NCBI GenBank assembly: GCA_963836075.1
Contig: CAWIIB010000009.1
Location: forward strand, 160,001 to 224,000
Direction: 5' to 3'
Source: an uncultured Acidobacteriota bacterium
GTDB taxonomy: Bacteria > Acidobacteriota > JAQAZP01
Length of the DNA stretch: 64,000 nt
Shown piece after piece: positions 26,832 through 37,822 of this stretch. A program made the translations under genes and the position numbers. Position 1 is the first letter of the stretch. The number at the start of each line of letters is the position of its first letter. The notes beneath the pieces were generated by a model that was not told the origin of the DNA, ran no database searches, and saw only the letters and a list, made by a program, of their open reading frames with translations.

Positions 26832-29800
26832 ATGAAACGATTGATGCTCATCGCCGCCGTGCTCGTGCTGGTTTTGAGCCCGATCGACGCAGCGGCAGAC
26901 TTCACAACCTGTTATCCGTTGGCGGCCAGCTACAACACCGGGTCGACGGATGGAAGCAGTAAAACCCGAACCAGTGAGATCGCCGGCTACGATTCCGAGG
27001 ACGGCTGGGCGATGTTCGACACCTCGGCCATCCCGGACACGGACAGCATCGTGTATGTCGAGTTCCACTTTTACGTCAACAGCACCGACTGGCCCTGGTG
27101 GAGTCGTCACACCGCTGACCAGCGACCCGCTCACCGCCTCGGCCGCGGCGACTCTATGCCGACATCAATGCCGAAGCCCTGTCAGCGGCTACTACCACCG
27201 CCAGGAAGAGGACATTACGTTTACCACCGGGTGGAAGACACTGGTACTGGGCGGCACGGCCAACCGACTGACATGGCCGCAGACCTTGGTGACGACTGGT
27301 TCGCTCTGGGCGTGGCCAGCACGGACGACAACACTACCTTCTACATCATCGTCGACGGCTGGGCCGAAACGAACCCGCCCTACCTGGTGGTGGAGCACAT
27401 AGCCGATTCCTGCAGCAACCACCTGATTGACCTGGGGTCCATGGGCTGCGGCGACGTGCTCTCCCACACCGGTGACACCACCGGAGCCACGAACTTCTGT
27501 GGCCAACCTTCAGGCGACAATTTCCTTGAGTTCGAAGTGCTGGAGGACGGACTCTACACCCTTGACATGTGTTTCTACGAAGGGACGCTCTTCGACACCG
27601 TGCTGTGGCTCTATGACGACGAGTGCTGCGGGAACGTGATCGCGGTCAATGATGATTCCGACTACGGCTGCGGCTTGAAGTCCCGGATCGACATCGTCCT
27701 CTCGCCGGGCACCTACTACGCCCAGGTGGAGGGCTATGATGTCGACGAGGGCCTCTACCGGCTGGACATCACCTGCGACCAGCCGGTGGATCTCGGTCCG
27801 GTGCCCTGCTTCGAGGAGATCGTCTACAACCAGGACACCAGCGGGGCCATCAACTACTGCGGTCATCCATCGGGTGACGCGCACTTCAAGTTCACCGTCG
27901 ATTACACCGCCAACTACACGGTCAGCCTCTGCAATCACCTACACGTCCTACAACTCGTTCCTCCGGCTCTTTGACGATTACAGCTGCGGAAACCAGATCG
28001 CGGCCAACAACGACTACCCCGGCTGCGGCCTCAACCCCTTTATCGACGTGACCCTTGACCCCGGGCGACTACTACGCTCTGGTGGAAGGCTACCAGGATA
28101 GTGAAGGGCCGTTCGAGCTGCACATCAGCTGCAACGAGCCGGACGGCGACACCCAGCTGGAGCTGGTGCCGGACATGGAGTGCTACCAGGAGGACGACAC
28201 GGTCTACCTGGCCATCACCCTCTCCAACGGCAACGCCATGATCGTCGGCGGGCAGTTCTTCCTCGGCTACGACAATACGGCCCTCGACTTTACTGGTGTC
28301 ACCGTGGGCGACGCTCCCTTCACCAACGAGGTCTACAACGTGGTGGACGAGGGGGCCGGGACCATCGACTACGCGGTGGGTGTCCCCGAGGGCACCAGCG
28401 GTACCATCAACGACACGGTGATGGCCTACCTGACCTTCACCGCGCTGCGCGACATCTGCGCCGACGCCCGGCCTGGTCTACTTCCGCACCCACTCACCTC
28501 CCACCCGGCTCAGCGACAACTACGGCAACGCGGAATACACCGTGCTGCTGGACATGGACATCGACGACACCACACCGCCGGTGATCAGCTGCCCGGCGCC
28601 GCTGACCCTGGAGTGCGACCAGCCCACCGATCCCCCGGGCACCGGGATGGCCACCGCCACCGACAACTGCGACCCCGCCCCGGTGGTCTCCTGGAGCGAC
28701 AGTTTCGACCTCAGCGGCTGCGGCGGCACAACCGGCACCATCACCCGCACCTGGCAGGCCATGGACCACTGCGGCAACATCTCCACCTGCGACCAGGTCA
28801 TCACCCTGGTGGACACCACCGCCCCGGTGGTCACCGCCGGCGCCATCGACAGCTGTTACGGCTCGCAGATGGCGGCCGAGTCGGCAGCAGTGGCCGCCAC
28901 CACCGCGGCGGACAACTGCACCCCGTCCGGCAGCCTGCTCTACACGCCGGTCACTGCGGGTGACTGCGCAGCGACGATCACCGTCAGCGTGAGCGACCTG
29001 TGCGGCAACTCCGACTCCGTCACCTACAACACCCGCATCGACGGCCTGGCGCCGCTGGTCACCGTCGGGGGCGATATGGACGTCAACGCCGATGCCGGCA
29101 CTTGCGCTGCCGCGGTCACCTGGGCCGCCGCTTCGGCCACCGACAACTGCGACGGCAATCTCTCCGGCGTGGTCGTCTACCACATCGACCTGGGCAACGA
29201 CGGTTCAGTGGACGATGTCCAGGCCGGCCTCACTTACACCTTCCCGGTGGGCACCCACAAGGTCACCGCCACGGCCACCGACAGCTGCCTCAACACCGGC
29301 CAGGACGACTTCCTGGTCACGGTGAACGGCTACAACTCCATGGTCCTCACCCTCTCCCACGACGGTACTCTGGTCAGTCCGCTGACCCGCTGTATCACCT
29401 TCGAGCTGTGGGACTGTGCCGGACCCACCAGCGTGACCTACAAGACCGAGGTCACCTTTACCGGCGGCATCGCATCCGCCACCATCGACGTGCCCTGCGG
29501 TGACTACAGCTGTATCACCGCCCGGGACGAGCTGCACACCCTGCGGCGGACACTGGACGGGCTCTCCGTGGTGGGCACCGAGTATGTGGCGACATTCACC
29601 CTGCCGCTGCTGGGCGGCAACCTCAATGGAGATACCTATGTCGACATCCTCGATTTCGGTGTCTTCAGCTATCAATTCGGGCCGGGAGGCGGCCCCACCA
29701 CCTGCGCCGACACCGGTCCCCATGCCGACATCACCGGTAACGGGGTCGTCGGTTCCGACGACTTCTCCTTCATCCAGATCAACTTCCTCAAGGGCGACGA

Positions 29801-30020
29801 TGCCGACTGCTGCAGCAGCCCGAGCCCCATGGGCCCGGCCGACCGGCCGGTCCTCTCGATCTCGGTCGAAGAGCTGCGACGGCGCGGTCTGGGACACCTG
29901 GCCATCGGCGACCTCAACGGTGACGCCGTGCTCGACCAGGCGGACATGGCCGCCTTCATGAGCGGGGCCCGCCCCAGCCTGAAGCCACAGACAAAGGAGG
30001 GCGCATCACTGCAGGAATGA
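26832..30020 (+). CDS. Large secreted multidomain protein (PPC-like x2, cohesin-like, HYR-like, dockerin-like tail), frameshifted
   Basis: Signal peptide; FDTVLWLYD..C....IAVNDD..CGL.S PPC-like repeats; GGQFFLGYD cohesin-like domain; DNCD repeats; GNLNGD.YVDILDF and GDLNGDAVLDQADM Ca-loop motifs. Confidence 0.7.
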
Positions 30021-30045: not shown

Positions 30046-30083
30046 GCCTCGCCCCGCGTCCTGCGGGGCGGGGCATTTTTTTT
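30046..30083 (+). terminator. Rho-independent terminator
   Basis: GCCTCGCCCCGC-GTCCT-GCGGGGCGGGGC hairpin followed by A and a T8 run. Confidence 0.85.
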
Positions 30084-30122
30084 GGAAAGTGAGCGGCGAT
30101 AGAGGGTTGGCGGAGCAGGCGC

Positions 30123-31274
30123 TCAGGCGTGCCGGCGGCGAAGCTCCGCGGCGGCGGCGGAAATGCTGCGCAGCTTTTCGGTCGCCGTCTCCTCGTCGTT
30201 GACACAGCGGTTGGCAAAGCAGCCGAAGCCGCAGTCGGGATTGAGGAAGATCTGCTGCGGCGTAAAGAAGCGCAGGGCCTGCTCGACCCGGGCCACGATC
30301 TCGTCCACGCTCTCCGGTTCGGCGGTGCGCGGGTTGACCACGCCGAGGCCGATCTCCTTGTGCGAGAGGGCCCGGCCCACCACGCCGATGTCGCCGGCCC
30401 GCGGGGTGGCGTATTCGAGGACAAACTGGTCCACGTTCATCCGCTCGAAAGCGGGGAGCAGCCTGGTGTAGTCGCCGGTGAGCAGCACGTCCTCCCGGCG
30501 GCTCCAGTTGCCGCGGCAGACGTGCAGGCCGGTGCGCAGGCCGTCAACCCCGTCAACGACACGGTTGATCAACTCGGCGGCGTATTCGAGCTCAGCACCC
30601 GCATCACGGCGGGTGGCCAGAGTCGCTCACATGAAGGTGCGGCGTCCGCACTCCTCCGACATGACGATCTCGGTGAGCACCGGTTCGTCGAACTGGACAA
30701 AGGCTGCTCCCTGGTCGCGAAGTTCCAGCAGCTCCTCGCGGAGGATGCGCACCACGTCATCACCCATTTCGGTCTTGCTGGCATACCCCTCGCCGGAGAA
30801 GGCGCCGACCCACATCGAGCGGGTGAGCAGGTACGGACCGGGCAGGGTAACCTTTACCGGAAGATCGGTCAGCCGGCGGACGAACCGCAGCTCATCCACG
30901 GCCAGCGGCTCCCGCCGGGAGAGGCGTCCCACGCAGGTCGGATTGCTGATGGCCGAGGCCGGCACGTCGAGGGTATCCAGGATCTCCTCGAAACCGGACT
31001 TGTCCTCCACCGTGTCCAGCATCTCGGCCAGGGACATCAGCTTTGTCCCGGCGACCTTGTCGGCGATGAAGGAATAGAAGTTGTCCCGCCGGTGCTCTCC
31101 GTCCACCACCAGCTCCACGCCTGCCTCTTCCTGGAGGCGGATGGTGCGGGTGATTTCAGTGTCGGCGATGCGCTCGAACTCGTCGCGCCCGATCCGACCG
31201 TGCCGCCGGTCGCGCAGGGCGCGGAGCAGGGCTTTCGACCGGGGCCAGCTGCCCACCTGGGTTACCGTGAACAT
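30123..31274 (-). CDS. Cobalamin-independent methionine synthase II (MetE C-terminal)-like protein read through an in-frame TGA (candidate selenocysteine)
   Basis: ORFs 30627-31274 and 30123-30572 share a frame (383 aa joined); VGSWPR, DGEHRR, QFDEP, HVCRGN, LEY, NPDCGF. Confidence 0.85.
30596..30629 (-). promoter_or_regulatory. Candidate bacterial SECIS element
   Basis: TGA, 11 nt, then CACCCGC-CGTGAT-GCGGGTG (perfect 7-bp stem, G at loop position 2). Confidence 0.65.
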
Positions 31275-31307
31275 GTTGTTCTTGGTCCATACTGCTTTGT
31301 GTCCTGT

Positions 31308-32064
31308 CTAAACAATCGCCAGTTTCAGCTGCAGCTCCACGCGCTTTCGCCAGGGTGGAAGCCAGCGGCGAACGGGTCACCGTCCGCTCCCAGGCCCGGC
31401 GCACTTCAGCCTCGTCGTCGAGGGTGGAGGCAAAGCACTTCAGCTCGATCGAGCTGAACGACGGGTCGCCATCGTCGAGGCCGAGGTGAGCCAGCACGTT
31501 GTTCAGCTTCCCGCGGACCGAAATCTCCACGTCATCCACGTTCAGTGACTCCCTGGCGCATTCATTGGCAAAACCGGTGCAGAGGTCACCGGCCAGCGCG
31601 CCAAGGAGGTATTCCACTGCCGAGGGATGCTCGTCCCGCTCTTCGAAACTGGCCGGCTGGCCCACTTGATACGAGAAGTTCCGGCAGTAGACCGTGCTCT
31701 TCAGCCGCCCGGTGGCCCGGACCCGGGCCCGCCACTCATACTCCCGGGCGCGGGCCTTGTCCCCGGCCAGGGCCTGCTCCTCCTCCTTCACCTTCTCCGC
31801 CCCGCGGCGGATAAAGAAGCGGTCGCACCCCTCTCCGGCCAGCTGACCCAGGTAGTCGTGGCCCACCATACGGCACCAGGGGGGCAGCTCGTCACGCACC
31901 GTCACTTCGCGGCTGCGCATCTCAAGCACGCCGCCCACCGGCACCTGGAGCATGTTTTCACGGATCAGCAGGATCAGCCCGGAGCCGCAGTCGAGGTCGC
32001 CACCGTCGAAGATGCGGTCCGGCTGCAGGGCAGCAAGATCAAGGGCAGTAGACATCCGGATCAC
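31308..32064 (-). CDS. TusA-like sulfur carrier fused to an OsmC-like domain; 1-nt frameshift near 31342
   Basis: DGGDLDCGSGL...ELPPWCRMVGH; PSAVEYLLGALAGDL; removing one base gives the end AKAVELQLKLAIV-TAG at 31308. Confidence 0.78.
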
Positions 32065-32074
32065 TCCTCCGGGG

Positions 32075-32440
32075 TCAAAATCCTACGCAGGGTGAGCCGT
32101 TGGACAGCCACTCCACCAGGGCCGCGCCGCCGGCCGGCTGAGCGCCGTCCACCAGCTGGTCCTCGGTAATCCCGCGCAACTTCAGGCAGGGCGAACAGAC
32201 CAGGATCCTTCCGCCGGCGGCGACGAACTTCTCCACCAGGTCCTTCAGCGGGGCAAAAGGCTCGCCCACGTTTACCTGCTCCATCTCGCCCTTCACCGCA
32301 GCCCAGACACCGTCGGTGCTGAGGAAGACGATGGTTTCCTTATCGCTGCCCACGGCGGCGTTGGCCACCACGAAACCCACCGTGGCCTTGTCCGGGTCCT
32401 GCTTGCAGTGGGTGATGGATACGCAAAATGTGTTTGACAC
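32075..32440 (-). CDS. DsrE/DsrF-like family protein
   Basis: KATVGFVVANAA, VFLSTDGV, VCSPCLK.RGI, AGGAALVEW. Confidence 0.85.
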   Translation of the reverse strand: MSNTFCVSITHCKQDPDKATVGFVVANAAVGSDKETIVFLSTDGVWAAVKGEMEQVNVGEPFAPLKDLVEKFVAAGGRILVCSPCLKLRGITEDQLVDGAQPAGGAALVEWLSNGSPCVGF

Positions 32441-32456
32441 GAGTGCACCTCCGACA

Positions 32457-32705
32457 TCATTGACGATCGGGCTTTCGCTCGATCAGGTAGTAAGGATGCG
32501 CCGACTCCACCAGGCGGTTGCCGGTGAGACGGCACCAGGCAGGTATTTCGACTTTCGAGCCCACATCGCGGGTGGCCAGCAGGATCTTCGACCCCGAATC
32601 ACATTTGCGGATGAAGAGGTTCAGGTCGAGGAGCAGTTGTCCGCACCCCAGTTCAAGGGCGTCGAACACATCCTCAAAATGCCAGTGGCCAGGAACGGTG
32701 GACAT
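32457..32705 (-). CDS. TusA family sulfurtransferase
   Basis: FDALELGCG.LL, D.GSK.EIPAWCRLTGN.L. Confidence 0.85.
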   Translation of the reverse strand: MSTVPGHWHFEDVFDALELGCGQLLLDLNLFIRKCDSGSKILLATRDVGSKVEIPAWCRLTGNRLVESAHPYYLIERKPDRQ

Positions 32706-32806: not shown

Positions 32807-32835
32807 TTGACGCCGCCCGGGGCTACGCCTATTCT
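32807..32835 (+). promoter_or_regulatory. Putative sigma70 promoter
   Basis: TTGACG-17 bp-TATTCT upstream of GTG 32879. Confidence 0.45.
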
Positions 32836-32878
32836 GGGATACGGCACGAGCAAACAATTCCGTCCAGGGGGATGGCCG

Positions 32879-34544
32879 GTGAACAGCCCGAAGCAGCACG
32901 GAAACAGCAGAACCGGGACCTGGTATCGAGACCCCGAACGGTTGCTCTTCGTCCTGCTGATCCTGGTCCACCTCTTCCCTCTCTGGTATTTCGACTACTT
33001 CCCCTCCCAGGACGGGCCGGCCCACCTGAACAACGCCAATGTGATCCGGGCCTACAACCTGCCGGAGAGCACCCACTTCCGGCAGTACCTACCAGCTGAG
33101 CAAGCACCCCGAACCGAACTGGTCCGGTCACCTGATCCTCGCCGGCCTGACCTGGGTGGTTTCGCCGCTCACCGCGGAGAAGATCCTGCTCAGCATCTAC
33201 GTCCTGCTCTTTCCCCTGCTGCTGCGCTACGCCCTGGTGCAAATACGGCCCGATGCCGGTTTTCTCGCCATCCTCGTCTTCCCCTTTATCTACGGCTACC
33301 CGCTCCATCTGGGGCTCTACAACTTCTCCCTCGGCCTGGCCCTGCTCTTCCTCCCCCTGGGCTACTATCTCAAGCACGGCGGGCGGTTTACCCTGGGCCG
33401 CACACTGCTGCTGGCCCTGATGCTGATGGTGCTCTACTTCTCGCACTTTATCGCCCTGCTGGCGGCCGGCCTGGCCATCGGCACCATGACCCTGTGGCAA
33501 ATGGCGGCGCAGTGGCTTGACCGGCGGAAGCGGGGTGAGAGCACCGGCCCGGCAGACCTGGCGCGGCTCTTCCGGCAGTACGCCCTGGGCCCGCTGGCCG
33601 CCCTGCTGCCCCCCGCCCTGCTGGCCGCGGCCTTTCTGGAGCGGCAGGGCGCCGGCCACATCACCGGGAACTCGATCCGGGAGCTGGCCCTCGCGGCGGC
33701 GGGCCTGTTCTCGCTGGTCTCCTTCCACCCCCGGGAGCAGTACTGCACCTGGACGCTGGCCGCGATCTTCTTCATCGTCGCCGGCGGGCTCTTCCTGCTG
33801 CGGCTGGTCCGCCGGGAGCTGGGGGTGAAGGAGGGGCTGCTGGTTGTTGCCGCCGCCTTCGGCCTGGTCTACCTGCTGGCTCCGGCAAAGATGTCGGGCG
33901 GCGCGGTGATCAACGAGCGGCTGATGCTGCTGCCCTTCCTGATGCTGGTCCTCTGGTTCGGGACGGCGGCGTGGCGGGGCGCGGCCCGGGCCGGGCTGCA
34001 GGCGGCCGCCGCGCTCATCGCCCTGGCCCTCTTCGGCATGCACGCCCAGGACTATGCCCGGGTCAACGACTACCTCGACGAGTATCTCTCGGCGGCGGAG
34101 CTGATCGAGCCGCAATCGACGCTGCTGGCCCTCTCCTTCTCCCACCAGGGGCACACGCCCCAGGGGCGGGTGCTCACCCGGCGCTTCGGCCCGTTCATCC
34201 ATGCCTCGGGCTACATCGCGGCCCAGCGGAACGTGGTGGACCTGAAGAACTACGAGGCCACCACCGGCCACTTTCCGGTGGTCTACCGCCCCGAACTGGA
34301 CCCCTACACCCACATCGGCGTGAACCACGGCCTGGAACGGCAACCGCCGCTGGTCAACTTCCTCGACTACGCCGAACGGACCGGCGGCAGCGTCGACTAC
34401 GTCCTGCTCTGGGGTATCCGCGACCGCCAGCGCTACCTCGAACCGACCCTGGAGATCTTGTACCAGCTGAACCAGGGCTACGAGCTGATCCACACCTCCC
34501 CGCAGCGCGGATACACGCAGCTGTGGCGCCGCAAGGATTTTTAA
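32879..34544 (+). CDS. Polytopic membrane protein (possible GT-C-type glycosyltransferase), frameshift near 33100
   Basis: PSQDGPAHL.NA, PNW..H, G.YNF.LG, NERL motifs; many TM segments. Confidence 0.6.
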
Positions 34545-34579
34545 GCACCCCACAACCAGACCGGCACCGATGGGTCACA

Positions 34580-34669: not shown

Positions 34670-35431
34670 TCAGAGCAGCCAGGGGATCAGCGCCTTCCGC
34701 TGCGGAGGGTAGTCGGGGAAGGTCTCACGATACCAGCGGTGGTGGTGCAGCGCCCGCGGCACCAGGTTGGCCGCGGTCCAGACCAGGAAGGCCACGCCGG
34801 GCAGCGACCAGGTGAGCAGGGCCCACCCGGCCCACTCGATGATCTCACCGAAGTAGTTGGGGCAGGAGATCAGTTCATAGAGGCCGCCGCGGGGGATGCC
34901 GTAGCGCCCGCTGCACTGCTGCCGCAGGCGGCGCAGGCGGCCGTCGGCCCAATGGTTGATCACCATGCCGAGGAAGAAGAGCAACAGGCCGGCGATGAAC
35001 CGGGGGTCGCTGCACCAGTGGCGGTACTGGTCGGCGGCGAGGGTGAAGAGCCAGCGGCCGTTGAGGTAACCGTTGACCACGTTGAACAGCATCCCGGAGA
35101 GGACGATGAACAGCGGCATCGACCCGCCGCCGCGCATGCGGAAGGGGAAGACCAGGGCCCGGTAGATGTAGTGGGACTGCCAGATCAGCAGAAAGAGGAG
35201 GGGGACGGTGGAGAAGGGGTCCCGGCCCAGCAGCCAGAAGGCGCCGAAGACCACCACCACCGTGCTCTCCATCATCACCCAGCCGGCCCGGGCGCTGATT
35301 TGCGGGCCCCAGCCCGGCCGCAGATGGCGGCCGTAGGGCGCCGGAATGAACAGCAGGACCAGGAAGGTCACCGCCGAGAGGCCGAACCAGCCGGTGATCA
35401 ACCACTGGAAGAAGCCGTGTTCATCGATCAT
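34670..35431 (-). CDS. 3-oxo-5-alpha-steroid 4-dehydrogenase (steroid 5-alpha-reductase)
   Basis: APYGRH, GW..ME, HY.YR, FN..NGYLNG, AD..LR.LR, Y.IPRGGLYE.ISCPNYFGEIIEW.G, NL.PRAL.HHRWY. Confidence 0.9.
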   Translation of the reverse strand: MIDEHGFFQWLITGWFGLSAVTFLVLLFIPAPYGRHLRPGWGPQISARAGWVMMESTVVVVFGAFWLLGRDPFSTVPLLFLLIWQSHYIYRALVFPFRMRGGGSMPLFIVLSGMLFNVVNGYLNGRWLFTLAADQYRHWCSDPRFIAGLLLFFLGMVINHWADGRLRRLRQQCSGRYGIPRGGLYELISCPNYFGEIIEWAGWALLTWSLPGVAFLVWTAANLVPRALHHHRWYRETFPDYPPQRKALIPWLL

Positions 35432-36408
35432 CGAGCCAGCTTCCCGTGGGATTCGAACCAGTTGTAGACATCTTCCACTGTTTCACGCACCGGCCGGGCC
35501 GTGTGGCCCAGTTCGCCGGCGGCCTTGCCGCACTCCACCCGGCGGTTGCCCCGCAGGGCGCCCAGGGCTTCCGGCGTGAAGAGGGGCCGGGTGCCGGTGA
35601 GCCGGGCCGCCAGCAGGGCCGGTGGTGCGGCCAGGCGGGCCAGCCACATGGGTGAGGTGAAGAGCGGTGCCCGCACCCCGGTCACCTCCGCCGCCAGACG
35701 GGCCAGGCCGCGGATCGACAGCCAGTGGCCGCCCAGAAGATAGGTCTGTCCGGGCCGGCCGGCTTCGGCGGCCCGCATGGCGCTGGAGACCACGTCCCGC
35801 ACATCCACCCAGTTGAATCCGCCGTTGACCAGCCCGGGGAGCCGCCGGTGGTGCAGGTCGAGGAAGACCTGGCCCATGGCCGAGGGCTTGTAGTCTCCGG
35901 GGCCGATGACCCCCGTGGGGTTGACCACCACCACTTCCAGGCCCTGGGTATTCCCGGCCAGCGCTTCCGCCTCGCCCCGGGCCTTGCTCTGGTCGTAGGC
36001 GTACGCCTCCTCGCCCACTGGAGGGCGACTCTCATCGAGCGGCTGGTCCAGCGGGTTCTGGCGCAGGGCGTGGATCGAGCTGAAGTGCACCAGCCGGCGC
36101 ACACCGCACTGCAGACAGGCGGTGACCACGTTCCGTGTGCCATCCACATTGACCTGCTGTACCGCTCCCCCGTCGCCGCCGGCAATGGAGATCCGCGCGG
36201 CCAGGTGGTAGACCAGGCCGGCCCCGCGAAAGGCCCGGACCAGCGAGTCGCGGTCCAGCAGGTCGGCCTCGGCCAGCTCCAGCGGCAGCCCGTCCAGGGC
36301 GCGGGTATCCCGGTGCACCAGGGCCCGGCACGACTGCCCTTTCTCCAGCAGCGCCCGGACCAGGTTGGCGCCGATGTGGCCCGCTGCGCCGGTGACGACA
36401 ATCATCAT
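35428..36408 (-). CDS. Extended SDR (dihydroflavonol reductase/3-beta-HSD/HpnA-like)
   Basis: TGAAGHIG, HLAA, NVDGT.NV, SSIHA, YDQSK, NPTGVIGPGD, VDVRDV. Confidence 0.85.
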   Translation of the reverse strand: MMIVVTGAAGHIGANLVRALLEKGQSCRALVHRDTRALDGLPLELAEADLLDRDSLVRAFRGAGLVYHLAARISIAGGDGGAVQQVNVDGTRNVVTACLQCGVRRLVHFSSIHALRQNPLDQPLDESRPPVGEEAYAYDQSKARGEAEALAGNTQGLEVVVVNPTGVIGPGDYKPSAMGQVFLDLHHRRLPGLVNGGFNWVDVRDVVSSAMRAAEAGRPGQTYLLGGHWLSIRGLARLAAEVTGVRAPLFTSPMWLARLAAPPALLAARLTGTRPLFTPEALGALRGNRRVECGKAAGELGHTARPVRETVEDVYNWFESHGKLAR

Positions 36409-36604
36409 TGCACCACGAAAGGTCGAGAATGTGTAAGTTCAGTCCGCTTGCCGGAACAGTTTCTTAATGGTGACACACCCGGAGCGCATTGACAATTGTC
36501 CCTATTGCCTATCAGAGAACTTGATCAAATGTGGCCCCCCCGGTAGAATGCCGGCAGAGAAGCACTTCAACCTGCACATAAAGAATCGGGAAGGGGACTA
36601 TGCC

Positions 36605-37822
36605 GTGAAACGTATTCTGCTCGTCATTCTGGTGATCTGCGGCCTGGCACTGTCAACCCGGGGGTTCGCCTCCGGCTGGGACAACTCACTGATCGGGGCC
36701 CGGGCCGGCGGCATGAGCTCGGCCTTTGCCGGGCTGGCCGACGATGCCACCGCCATCTTCTACAATCCCGGTGGGTTGGCCTTCACCGGGGACAAGGGCG
36801 AAATCATCCTGGTGGGCAAGCAGTACTGGCCCGAACACAGCTACACCCCGTTCGGCGGCGACGAGGTGGTGACCAAGACCCCCACATTCCTCCCCGAACT
36901 GTTCGCCTACACCCGTCTGGACGAGCACGTCACCATCGGCCTCGGCATCTACAACGCCTATGCCGGCGGCGGCATCGAGTGGCTGGCCGAGGATGTGGGG
37001 ATCGGTGTTGACGGTTCGATCTACGTCACCTCCATCACGCCCACGGTCAGTTTCCGGTTCAACGACTGGCTGGCCCTCGGCCTCAATCTCAACTACTACC
37101 TCGGCAAGAGCGACCAGTCGTACCAGGATCCCAACGCCGGGTACACCGATGTCAGCAGGTTCAGCTCGGACGAGGACGACTACTCCCTGTCCATCTCCAG
37201 CGGCATCTTTTTCAAGCCCAGCGACCGCTGGTCAGCCGGCCTCACCTGGCACGGCCCCAGCGACATGAACCTCACCGGCAAGACCGACCTGGAGACCTTT
37301 GTTTTCGCCGGCACCTTCGACTCCAGCACCCGGTTCAGCCTCCCCTGGTGGACCGCCCTGGGCGGCGCGTTCCACATCTCCGACAAGTGGAAGCTGGTGG
37401 CCGAGTGGGACTACTTCGACTGGTCGTCCATGGACAAGCTGGACAAGACCATCTCCAACACCCCCTTCGGTGATATCACCGAAGAGCAGTTCACCGGGTT
37501 CGACGACGCCAGCTACTTCCAGTTCGGCACCGAGTATGACATCTCGGAGAGCTGGACCATCCGCGGCGGCCTCTCCTACGAGCAGCGGGCGGTGCAGGCG
37601 GAATACCTCTCGCTGACCAACGTGGACGTGAGCAAGCGGCACCTCTTTGCCGGGGCCACTTACAATTACAACAAGTGGCACTTCGACCTCGGCGGGTTCT
37701 ATTCCATGGGGAAGGAACTCTCCACACCGCAGGACGGCGAACCGATGGGGCGGTTCAACCTCCCCGGCACCTACAACATCGATGCCGCCGGACTGCTCTT
37801 CGCGGTGGGCCGGACGTTCTAG
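36605..37822 (+). CDS. fadL: FadL/OmpP1 outer-membrane hydrophobic-compound transporter
   Basis: Signal peptide, ASG....GARA.GM..AF.GLADDATAIFYNPGGL, terminal F. Confidence 0.85.
   Translation: MKRILLVILVICGLALSTRGFASGWDNSLIGARAGGMSSAFAGLADDATAIFYNPGGLAFTGDKGEIILVGKQYWPEHSYTPFGGDEVVTKTPTFLPELFAYTRLDEHVTIGLGIYNAYAGGGIEWLAEDVGIGVDGSIYVTSITPTVSFRFNDWLALGLNLNYYLGKSDQSYQDPNAGYTDVSRFSSDEDDYSLSISSGIFFKPSDRWSAGLTWHGPSDMNLTGKTDLETFVFAGTFDSSTRFSLPWWTALGGAFHISDKWKLVAEWDYFDWSSMDKLDKTISNTPFGDITEEQFTGFDDASYFQFGTEYDISESWTIRGGLSYEQRAVQAEYLSLTNVDVSKRHLFAGATYNYNKWHFDLGGFYSMGKELSTPQDGEPMGRFNLPGTYNIDAAGLLFAVGRTF

Follow-up and report, generated by a model that had tools for sequence, protein, structure and literature searches.

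A 64,000-nucleotide (nt) stretch of DNA from an uncultured Acidobacteriota bacterium (assembly GCA_963836075.1, contig CAWIIB010000009.1, positions 160,001 to 224,000), which is referred to here as the window, carries on its minus strand a gene for a MetE-like protein of Pfam family PF01717 that has an in-frame TGA at codon 216. We consider it highly probable, on comparative sequence grounds, that UGA216 is a genuine selenocysteine (Sec) codon with its own selenocysteine insertion sequence (SECIS). The hairpin located 11 nt downstream would be a bacterial SECIS, with SelB delivering Sec-tRNA(Sec) at UGA216, and because the Sec codon has this SECIS directly downstream, the gene is predicted to yield a single selenoprotein of 383 residues. 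The protein would belong to a previously unlisted, widespread Sec clade of single-domain MetE-like zinc-dependent thiol alkyltransferases.

The original prediction, which was made from the window alone, joined two minus-strand open reading frames (ORFs), 31274..30630 (215 amino acids (aa), ending in EECGRRTFM) and 30626..30126 (beginning with ATLATRRD). The coordinates and the translation agree with this: the two ORFs are in one frame and the TGA is all that separates them. The terminal stop of the gene is also a TGA. Read through, the two ORFs give the predicted 383-aa protein with its HVC, E and NPDCG motifs, and the columns of these motifs are invariant in an alignment of 77 sequences. Homologs that also have the TGA (TGA-forms) and are 75-88% identical are colinear with the gene and align without gaps. 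The closest relative (L180) is 88% identical and gapless over the 383 codons; compared with it, the nonsynonymous (dN) and synonymous (dS) rates are 0.082 and 0.633 before the UGA and 0.079 and 0.474 after it. The dN/dS ratio past the UGA is thus about 0.17, similar to that of the part before it, and five more pairwise comparisons give the same pattern. The part of the gene after the UGA is under purifying selection.

The original prediction also proposed a Cys at this position (RTFMC) in homologs, and it named alternation between Cys and TGA in this column as the check to be made. Both the Cys and the alternation are found. When 5.8 billion proteins were searched, 7906 matched, and the best 120 of these, all full-length (356-414 aa) and 58-70% identical, were aligned with MAFFT; the column has Cys in 119 of them and a gap in one, and the surrounding motif R-T-F-M-C-A is essentially invariant. 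The codon is TGC or TGT in 31 unique DNA segments of the Cys-forms. For the TGA-forms, a degenerate pattern scan for R-T-F-M-TGA-A-x-L-x-x-R-x-D was used, which retrieves TGA-forms only and hence gives no Sec:Cys ratio; from its information content, the pattern is estimated to produce only a few matches by chance. The scan found at least 117 loci in a collection with one genome per species and at least 120 in metagenome contigs. Of the 237 loci listed, 236 are homologs, whose BLASTP alignments to the read-through protein span residue 216 at 62-88% identity, and 180 are near full length. There is no full-length TGA-form among the best 120 protein-database matches, that is, above the Cys-forms of about 70% identity, which suggests that public records hold the TGA-form genes as truncated or broken.

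The species genomes with a TGA-form (at least 117) come from at least 15 named phyla. Among the matches listed, 37 are Thermodesulfobacteriota, 23 Planctomycetota, seven each Verrucomicrobiota, Pseudomonadota and Bacteroidota, and six Acidobacteriota; nine further named phyla account for 14, and 16 are not placed. Two cultured Desulfobulbales, Desulfobulbus alkaliphilus DSM 24258 and Desulfopila aestuarii DSM 18488, have the TGA-form. In the window's own phylum, a homolog is present in eight of 401 genomes (E <= 1e-60), and only the window's genome has TGA in it. Among 301 Planctomycetota genomes, a homolog occurs in 46 (E <= 1e-80), and the 30 loci that were fetched include five with TGA in the column and 25 with TGC or TGT. 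Of the other 16 loci, that of G980 contains one TGA, not necessarily in this column.

Three of the five Planctomycetota TGA loci (L270, L277 and L278) fall in the main clade. The other two, L297 (genome G969) and L299 (genome G790), form a second, more distant clade; they are 51-52% identical and have TGA in the same column (THTFM*GVLAAKASPEGEL). Their downstream sequence is different: a hairpin of the form GCCC-GGA-GGGC follows the UGA at a distance of about 25 nt. One resembling it, GCCC-GAC-GGGC, is present in L300, a Cys-form relative. This second clade looks like an independent switch from Cys to Sec. A FastTree phylogeny of 318 rows (173 Sec, 143 Cys and two with another residue, with the Sec column coded as C in every row, and with P0004 and the duplicates L275 and L276 left out) needs at least nine Sec/Cys changes, and its main Sec-rich clade contains several nested Cys groups.

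The hairpin has the dimensions that were first claimed for it, namely a perfect stem of 7 base pairs (bp) that begins 11 nt after the UGA and a loop of sequence C-G-U-G-A-U, which begins 18 nt after the UGA. The 11-nt spacer is GCGACUCUGGC. The program bSECISearch looks for a stem-loop right after the UGA whose apical loop is at a distance of about 16-37 nt and has a G in one of its first positions, and the hairpin agrees with criteria of this type. The 45 nt that start at the UGA fold with -20.4 kcal/mol (z = -2.84), which is equalled by two of 200 dinucleotide shuffles. Rfam has no match within 30100-31300 at E <= 1.

Most of the TGA-forms share this structure. A stem of 5-7 bp that starts 11-13 nt after the UGA is present in 192 of 214 unique TGA-form segments, the common hairpin being ACCCGC / CGKGAY / GCGGGU with the 6-nt loop CGKGAY, and a stem in the same register is present in only one of the 31 unique Cys-form segments. 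In an alignment of 150 TGA-forms, 89.5% of the cells are paired, compared with 33-51% if the partner is slid by one to three columns, and none of 500 shuffles reaches the observed pairing values. The outer pair, 15/34, covaries (CG 48, UA 17, GU 6, UG 6, AU 5 and GC 1 in the 150 rows). Seven Bacteroidota genomes have a longer, different hairpin at the same place.

The third codon positions provide another view of the stem. Those that fall within it (nt 18, 21 and 30) have entropies of 0.21, 0.31 and 0.23 bits in the TGA-forms compared with 1.66, 1.55 and 1.64 bits in the Cys-forms, while the third positions flanking the stem have values of about 1.5-1.9 in both. The codon at nt 28-30 is GCG (186) or GTG (18) in 204 of the 214 TGA-forms and a Pro codon (CCN) in 30 of the 31 Cys-forms. 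Judged from these alignments, the hairpin is conserved specifically in the TGA-forms, even at synonymous sites, and the stem also dictates the amino acid at nt 28-30. Five Cys-forms nested in the Sec-rich clade (P0009, P0011, P0016, P0025 and P0036) have Asp-Ala (RRDAG or RQDAG) where Asp-Pro is usual; this Ala, which is what the stem requires there, may have been left over from a recent Sec-to-Cys conversion.

A separate observation concerns the contig depth over the hairpin. In two sediment/salt-marsh metagenome runs, the summed depth at window positions 30591-30629 is 189-208, compared with about 7-50 in the adjacent bins. We considered expression as the cause of this spike and rejected it; the spike reflects many related contigs that match the conserved SECIS, and the same 39-nt stretch is apparently present in many different organisms of those two samples.

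These results bear on the simplest alternative, which is that the TGA is a real stop, either in a pseudogene or through a sequencing or assembly error, and that the hairpin is coincidental. Broken genes are most commonly recognised by a single in-frame stop, the original prediction noted other gene breaks in the window, and the gene was not found in the two genomes of the same genus at E <= 1e-20. Yet the same TGA occupies the same column in 236 independent loci, the gene has zero indels over its 383 codons relative to its closest relative, and selection past the stop is as strong as before it. The TGA is also retained in independent assemblies: contigs of three DNA metagenome runs, from three studies, bridge codon 216, and at 30627-30629 no alternative letter occurs among the differences listed for these contigs. 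Together, the 236 homologous TGA loci, the dN/dS values and the stem constraint specific to the TGA-forms effectively refute a pseudogene or an error, and we give this alternative next to no chance.

A second alternative accepts the gene as functional and ends translation at UGA216. The 215-aa N-terminal piece would then assemble with a C-terminal piece started separately, and the hairpin would have a role in termination-reinitiation or in the stability of the mRNA, and none in Sec insertion. Gene callers would indeed annotate the locus in this manner, as a 215-aa ORF followed by a 149-aa ORF from a TTG at 30572. However, that next in-frame start is 18 codons downstream, and using it would lose the invariant residues A217, L219, R222, D224, E228 and A232. 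Codons 217-234 vary at their third positions and not at their first and second positions, which implies that they are translated. Furthermore, the stop falls precisely in the column of an invariant Cys, selA is present in every TGA-form genome tested, and the closely related Cys-forms are single polypeptides. A split gene is therefore very improbable.

Sec insertion at UGA216 would depend on the sel genes, and selA, selB, selC (the gene for tRNA-Sec) and selD, which the original prediction wanted confirmed, are all present in the window's genome (an assembly of 6.23 megabases in 10 contigs, 94.7% complete). The scores are 562.8 bits for selA, 365.7 bits for selB and 74.7 bits for tRNA-Sec, and these three and selD all exceed the curated cut-offs. 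There are two selD genes (G000:C4:17381-18301 and G000:C9:892330-893256), each of which has one in-frame TGA itself (SGG*AAK), and they have near-identical SECIS hairpins that start 12-14 nt after the UGA and have a GGU loop. All of the 10 other TGA-form genomes tested have selA. In one Bacteroidales genome (G405), selA (C18:77848-79212) is located about 5 kb from the TGA-form gene (C18:84416-85561) on the same contig.

Several observations weigh against a Sec codon at this position. The hairpin lacks the bulged U of the E. coli type, which is a criterion for a SECIS in the literature on E. coli fdhF. Its outer pair is unpaired in 67 of the 150 rows, and its six inner pairs are nearly invariant, so classical covariation is mostly limited to the outer pair. 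RNAalifold with default scoring did not return the hairpin from the 150-sequence alignment; RIBOSUM scoring recovers it (-19.6), as does the removal of the 14 rows without ACCCGC, so the miss is due to these rows and to the scoring scheme. Two TGA-form genomes (G912 and G969) have selA but no selD at E <= 1e-40, which may be due to incomplete assemblies. In the Planctomycetota, the association of the family with selD is weak (40 of 46 genomes with the family compared with 177 of 255 without it, by hand count), and it is too weak for use, the related genomes not being independent. Five of five Cys-form Planctomycetota genomes also have selA, and so selA does not separate the two forms. The evidence that bridges the UGA consists of assembled contigs and not raw reads, with 29 less-supported differences outside the listing, and the RNA run X20 covers only 30925-31274, which is the 5' part of the gene and not the UGA. 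Finally, Cys-form genomes have the same neighbouring genes, so the operon described below says nothing specific about Sec.

The positions of the gene, the hairpin, the presumed zinc ligands and the adjacent genes are collected in the following table.

Table. Features of the MetE-like gene and its operon (window coordinates)
Feature	Position	Strand	Remarks
MetE-like (PF01717) coding sequence	31274..30123	minus	383 codons from ATG 31274, plus TGA stop 30125..30123
In-frame UGA, codon 216, in RTFM-U-ATLATRRD	30629..30627	minus	Cys/TGA column comparison
SECIS-like hairpin	30615..30596	minus	Begins 11 nt past the UGA
Hairpin, 5' arm CACCCGC	30615..30609	minus	
Hairpin, loop CGUGAU	30608..30603	minus	
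Hairpin, 3' arm GCGGGUG	30602..30596	minus	
Codons H251-V252-C253, first two presumed zinc ligands	30524..30516	minus	H251 and C253 invariant
Codon E287, presumed third zinc ligand	30416..30414	minus	Invariant; analogy with MetE
Codon C348 in NPDCG, presumed fourth zinc ligand	30233..30231	minus	N345, P346, D347, C348 and G349 invariant
TusA-like gene (GCGQ, PAWC), first of the four-gene cluster	32705..32457	minus	Pfam TusA 7.9e-06, 26.1 bits
DsrE-like gene, invariant CSPC	32440..32075	minus	Pfam DsrE 4.8e-14
TusA-like (DCGSG, PPWC)::OsmC-like fusion gene	32064..31156	minus	Pfam OsmC 1.5e-08

The read-through protein matches PF01717 (Meth_synt_2) over residues 3-351 with an E value of 1.8e-30 and a score of 106.8 bits against a cut-off of 21. 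Invariant columns of the 77-sequence alignment include G8-S9-W10, D58-G59-E60, D196-E197-P198, H251, C253, E287 and C348, and F214-M215-C216-A217 is invariant as well. Following the MetE literature, we take the H-x-C, E and C residues to be zinc ligands and the Ser, Glu and Asp positions (S9, E60 and D196) to be those that hold homocysteine. The MetE zinc site (H251, C253, E287 and C348) thus appears to be retained, and since the homocysteine-binding residues are also kept, the thiol that the enzyme activates is probably that of an amino acid, for example homocysteine, by analogy with MetE.

The protein differs from the named methionine synthases in its scores. The model for the canonical two-domain MetE, TIGR01371 (754 positions), gives 91.4 bits against a cut-off of 929.95, and Pfam Meth_synt_1, the folate-binding N-terminal domain, gives 16.9 bits, which is below its cut-off of 27. 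None of PRK04326, PRK00957, PRK06233, PRK09121 and PRK01207 passed, the best score being 179.9 bits against 406, and all ten listed NCBIfam methionine-synthase models score below their cut-offs. The window's genome has a full MetH (1202.7 bits), and the MetE-like gene is its sole PF01717 gene. Given this MetH and the lack of a folate-binding domain at its N-terminus, the MetE-like protein is probably not the housekeeping methionine synthase.

An AlphaFold2 model built with the 77 sequences has a predicted local distance difference test (pLDDT) value of 88.8 and a predicted template modelling (pTM) score of 0.91. The best Foldseek match is Thermotoga maritima MetE (E 6e-22, TM 0.74), and at the top of the structural comparison are the MetE catalytic barrels from T. 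maritima and from fungi (E about 1e-21, TM 0.74). Residue 216 is in a 15-residue coil (210-224) between two helices that link the DEP strand (192-196) to the H-x-C strand (247-252), and TIM-barrel topology would place this loop on the catalytic (zinc) face of the barrel. The blocks covering residues 201-220 fall to pLDDT values of 70 and 53 and are the least confident part of the model, so the nearness of Sec216 to the zinc rests on barrel topology and not on coordinates, which also counts as a point against our interpretation.

The MetE-like gene is the last of a conserved cluster of four genes. The first is the TusA-like gene, whose TusA score is below the gathering score of 28.6; it is followed by the DsrE-like gene and the TusA-OsmC-like fusion. 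The fusion gene adjoins the MetE-like gene in 190 of the 237 TGA loci among the matches listed and in 29 of 33 Cys loci; the corresponding counts are 154 and 19 for the DsrE-like neighbour and 132 and 17 for the TusA-like neighbour. All of these counts are lower bounds, many loci being short. The conserved Cys residues of the three neighbours are nearly always retained: the DsrE-like CSPC (C82 and C85) in 153 of 153, C26 of the fusion protein in 159 of 159 and its C64 in 159 of 161, and C21 of the TusA-like protein in 131 of 131 and its C58 in 131 of 133. No TGA occurs at the conserved Cys columns of the three neighbours. A tblastn search with the ORFs of five reference loci found no further conserved neighbour; a further conserved ORF in one of them (L095) is another TusA-domain protein.

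The window's copy of the fusion gene is unusual at its 3' end. The ORF is 302 aa long, its last 119 nt (31156-31274) coincide with the beginning of the MetE-like gene, and it runs about 50 aa beyond the ends of its homologs, those at other loci stopping at positions that match residues ~252-266. This copy may have lost its normal stop or been frameshifted near the 3' end (31156-31310). On the other side of the MetE-like gene, a terminator-like hairpin of 13 bp, GC-rich and with a T-run, is present on the plus strand at window positions 30046-30074, between the end of the MetE-like gene and a convergent HYR-domain gene (28542-30020). Farther upstream, beyond the TusA-like gene, a 574-aa ORF at 32829-34553 has no Pfam match, and positions 34670-37822 contain genes for a steroid 5-alpha-reductase-like protein, an NAD-dependent epimerase/3-beta-HSD-like protein and a FadL/TodX-type outer-membrane transporter, which are not conserved beside the MetE-like family at other loci.

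The conserved operon of Cys-bearing TusA-, DsrE- and OsmC-like proteins points to a thiol or persulfide relay in which Sec216, or Cys216 in the Cys-forms, is on the receiving end. Sec216 would be a mobile nucleophile that either swaps sulfane sulfur or forms a selenenylsulfide with the TusA-like, DsrE-like and TusA-OsmC-like carriers encoded upstream, and it would then pass the sulfur or substrate on to the zinc site. Provided that residue 216 is Sec, we take this to be its most likely role, at somewhat less than even odds.

UGA216 may also be recoded without Sec216 serving as a sulfur relay, although we think this rather unlikely. Sec216 would then be either a transient Se-methyl-Sec carrier between a methyl donor and zinc-bound homocysteine, or a redox switch or guard, joined to a zinc-ligand Cys through a selenenylsulfide. 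The chemistry of MetE-family enzymes is alkyl transfer to zinc-activated thiols, which would suit such roles; the protein has no folate domain, there is no corrinoid-protein gene among the conserved neighbours, and the model puts the Sec on what would be a flexible loop next to the H-x-C strand. In addition, a preprint ties related methyltransferases of the UroD superfamily to methyl-selenium metabolism (PMC10418091). Methyl carriage has against it that the sole conserved neighbours are the Cys-bearing TusA-like, DsrE-like and OsmC-like proteins, and the annotation of their families, which is that of sulfur carriers or thiol peroxidases, favours sulfur or redox exchange over it.

A more far-reaching version, which we regard as improbable, is that Sec216 is a protein-borne supernucleophile in a new sulfur or methyl pathway fed by the TusA-like, DsrE-like and OsmC-like carriers. 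Sulfane sulfur or a methyl group would be taken up by the selenolate, located on the mobile loop, and transferred to a zinc-bound amino-acid thiol. If this were true, there would be a folate- and corrinoid-independent route in the metabolism of methionine, methanethiol or persulfides that is common in sediment bacteria of many phyla, and selenium would replace cob(I)alamin in the job that it does in MetH.

The presence of Sec in a zinc-dependent, MetE-type triosephosphate isomerase (TIM) barrel would extend the use of selenium to a different scaffold, and recognising the family would fix annotation in many sediment and soil lineages. The Sec would also single out the residue that is critical to the function of this uncharacterised enzyme and so provide a handle on what the conserved sulfur-carrier operon does. 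The near-invariant SECIS sequence can be used as a simple search key, and the two cultured strains with the TGA-form make the family accessible to bench work.

The original prediction placed MetE-like proteins outside the classic selenoprotein families, and the literature supports this statement. An inventory of May 2026 counts 119 prokaryotic selenoprotein families, most of them thioredoxin-like redox proteins, and describes its Table 1 as the most comprehensive list (PMC13188914); it contains no PF01717, MetE, methionine synthase or homocysteine, and Table 1 has no such entry. Term searches of the main texts, supplementary tables apart, of the deep-Sep paper, a 2022 review and the GOS, Olavius and 2016 ISME surveys gave nothing (PMC12013277, PMC9312934, PMC2398784, PMC1976440 and PMC5029168). 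Full-text literature searches found no paper on a Sec-containing MetE-like family, although supplementary tables could list it, and NCBIfam release 20 has no selenoprotein-specific model for it. The accessible part of the preprint that links other UroD-superfamily methyltransferases to methyl-selenium metabolism has no description of a Sec-containing MetE-like protein (PMC10418091). By this comparison, the family is a widespread predicted selenoprotein family that is absent from the published lists checked.

The closest known relatives in structure are the C-terminal catalytic domains of MetE (PF01717; PDB 1XDJ, 3BQ6 and 1T7L), which have the same fold, as indicated by the Foldseek values above, and match in sequence with an E value of about 1e-22. 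The H-x-C, E and C zinc motif of MetE is invariant here, and the likewise invariant GSWPR, DGE and DEP are at the positions of the MetE homocysteine site. In contrast to MetE, the protein consists of one domain of 383 aa and lacks the folate-binding barrel at the N-terminus, it has an inserted loop (RTFM-U/C-A) after the DEP strand, its HMMER alignments to MetE chains are interrupted from about residue 205 to near 270, and its gene is in a TusA-like / DsrE-like / OsmC-like operon. The short core MetE-like proteins (PDB 1YPX from Listeria and 3RPD from Shewanella; MesA-D, PMC7857596) are likewise single-domain proteins, of 340-375 aa, and residues 9-361 of 1YPX align end to end (E 3.7e-19). However, the identity to these proteins is only about 20%, and their NCBIfam equivalog models score the MetE-like protein far below the cut-offs. 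A term search of the paper on these four core methionine-synthase families found no OsmC, DsrE, TusA or selenocysteine (PMC7857596).

Among selenoproteins, fdhF and selD share with the MetE-like gene an in-frame UGA in a column where homologs have Cys, a hairpin that begins 11-14 nt past this codon and has an early G-U in its loop, as in the genome's own pair of selD genes, and dependence on the selA, selB, selC and selD set. Unlike the established selenoproteins, the protein would be a zinc alkyltransferase TIM barrel and not a thioredoxin-like or molybdopterin protein, and its Sec would be outside any UxxC or CxxU motif. A further comparison is with the Sec-containing families in sulfur trafficking, which in Table 1 of the inventory include DsrE-like UxxC, rhodanese-like, OsmC-like UxxT and YeeE/YedE proteins (PMC13188914). 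Two of the neighbours here are members of Pfam families, DsrE and OsmC, for each of which Sec forms are known, and the chemistry is likely the same, namely chalcogen exchange on a mobile nucleophile. The difference is that in this operon the neighbours keep their Cys, as in the CSPC of the DsrE-like protein, and the Sec would instead be part of the enzyme that the last gene encodes.

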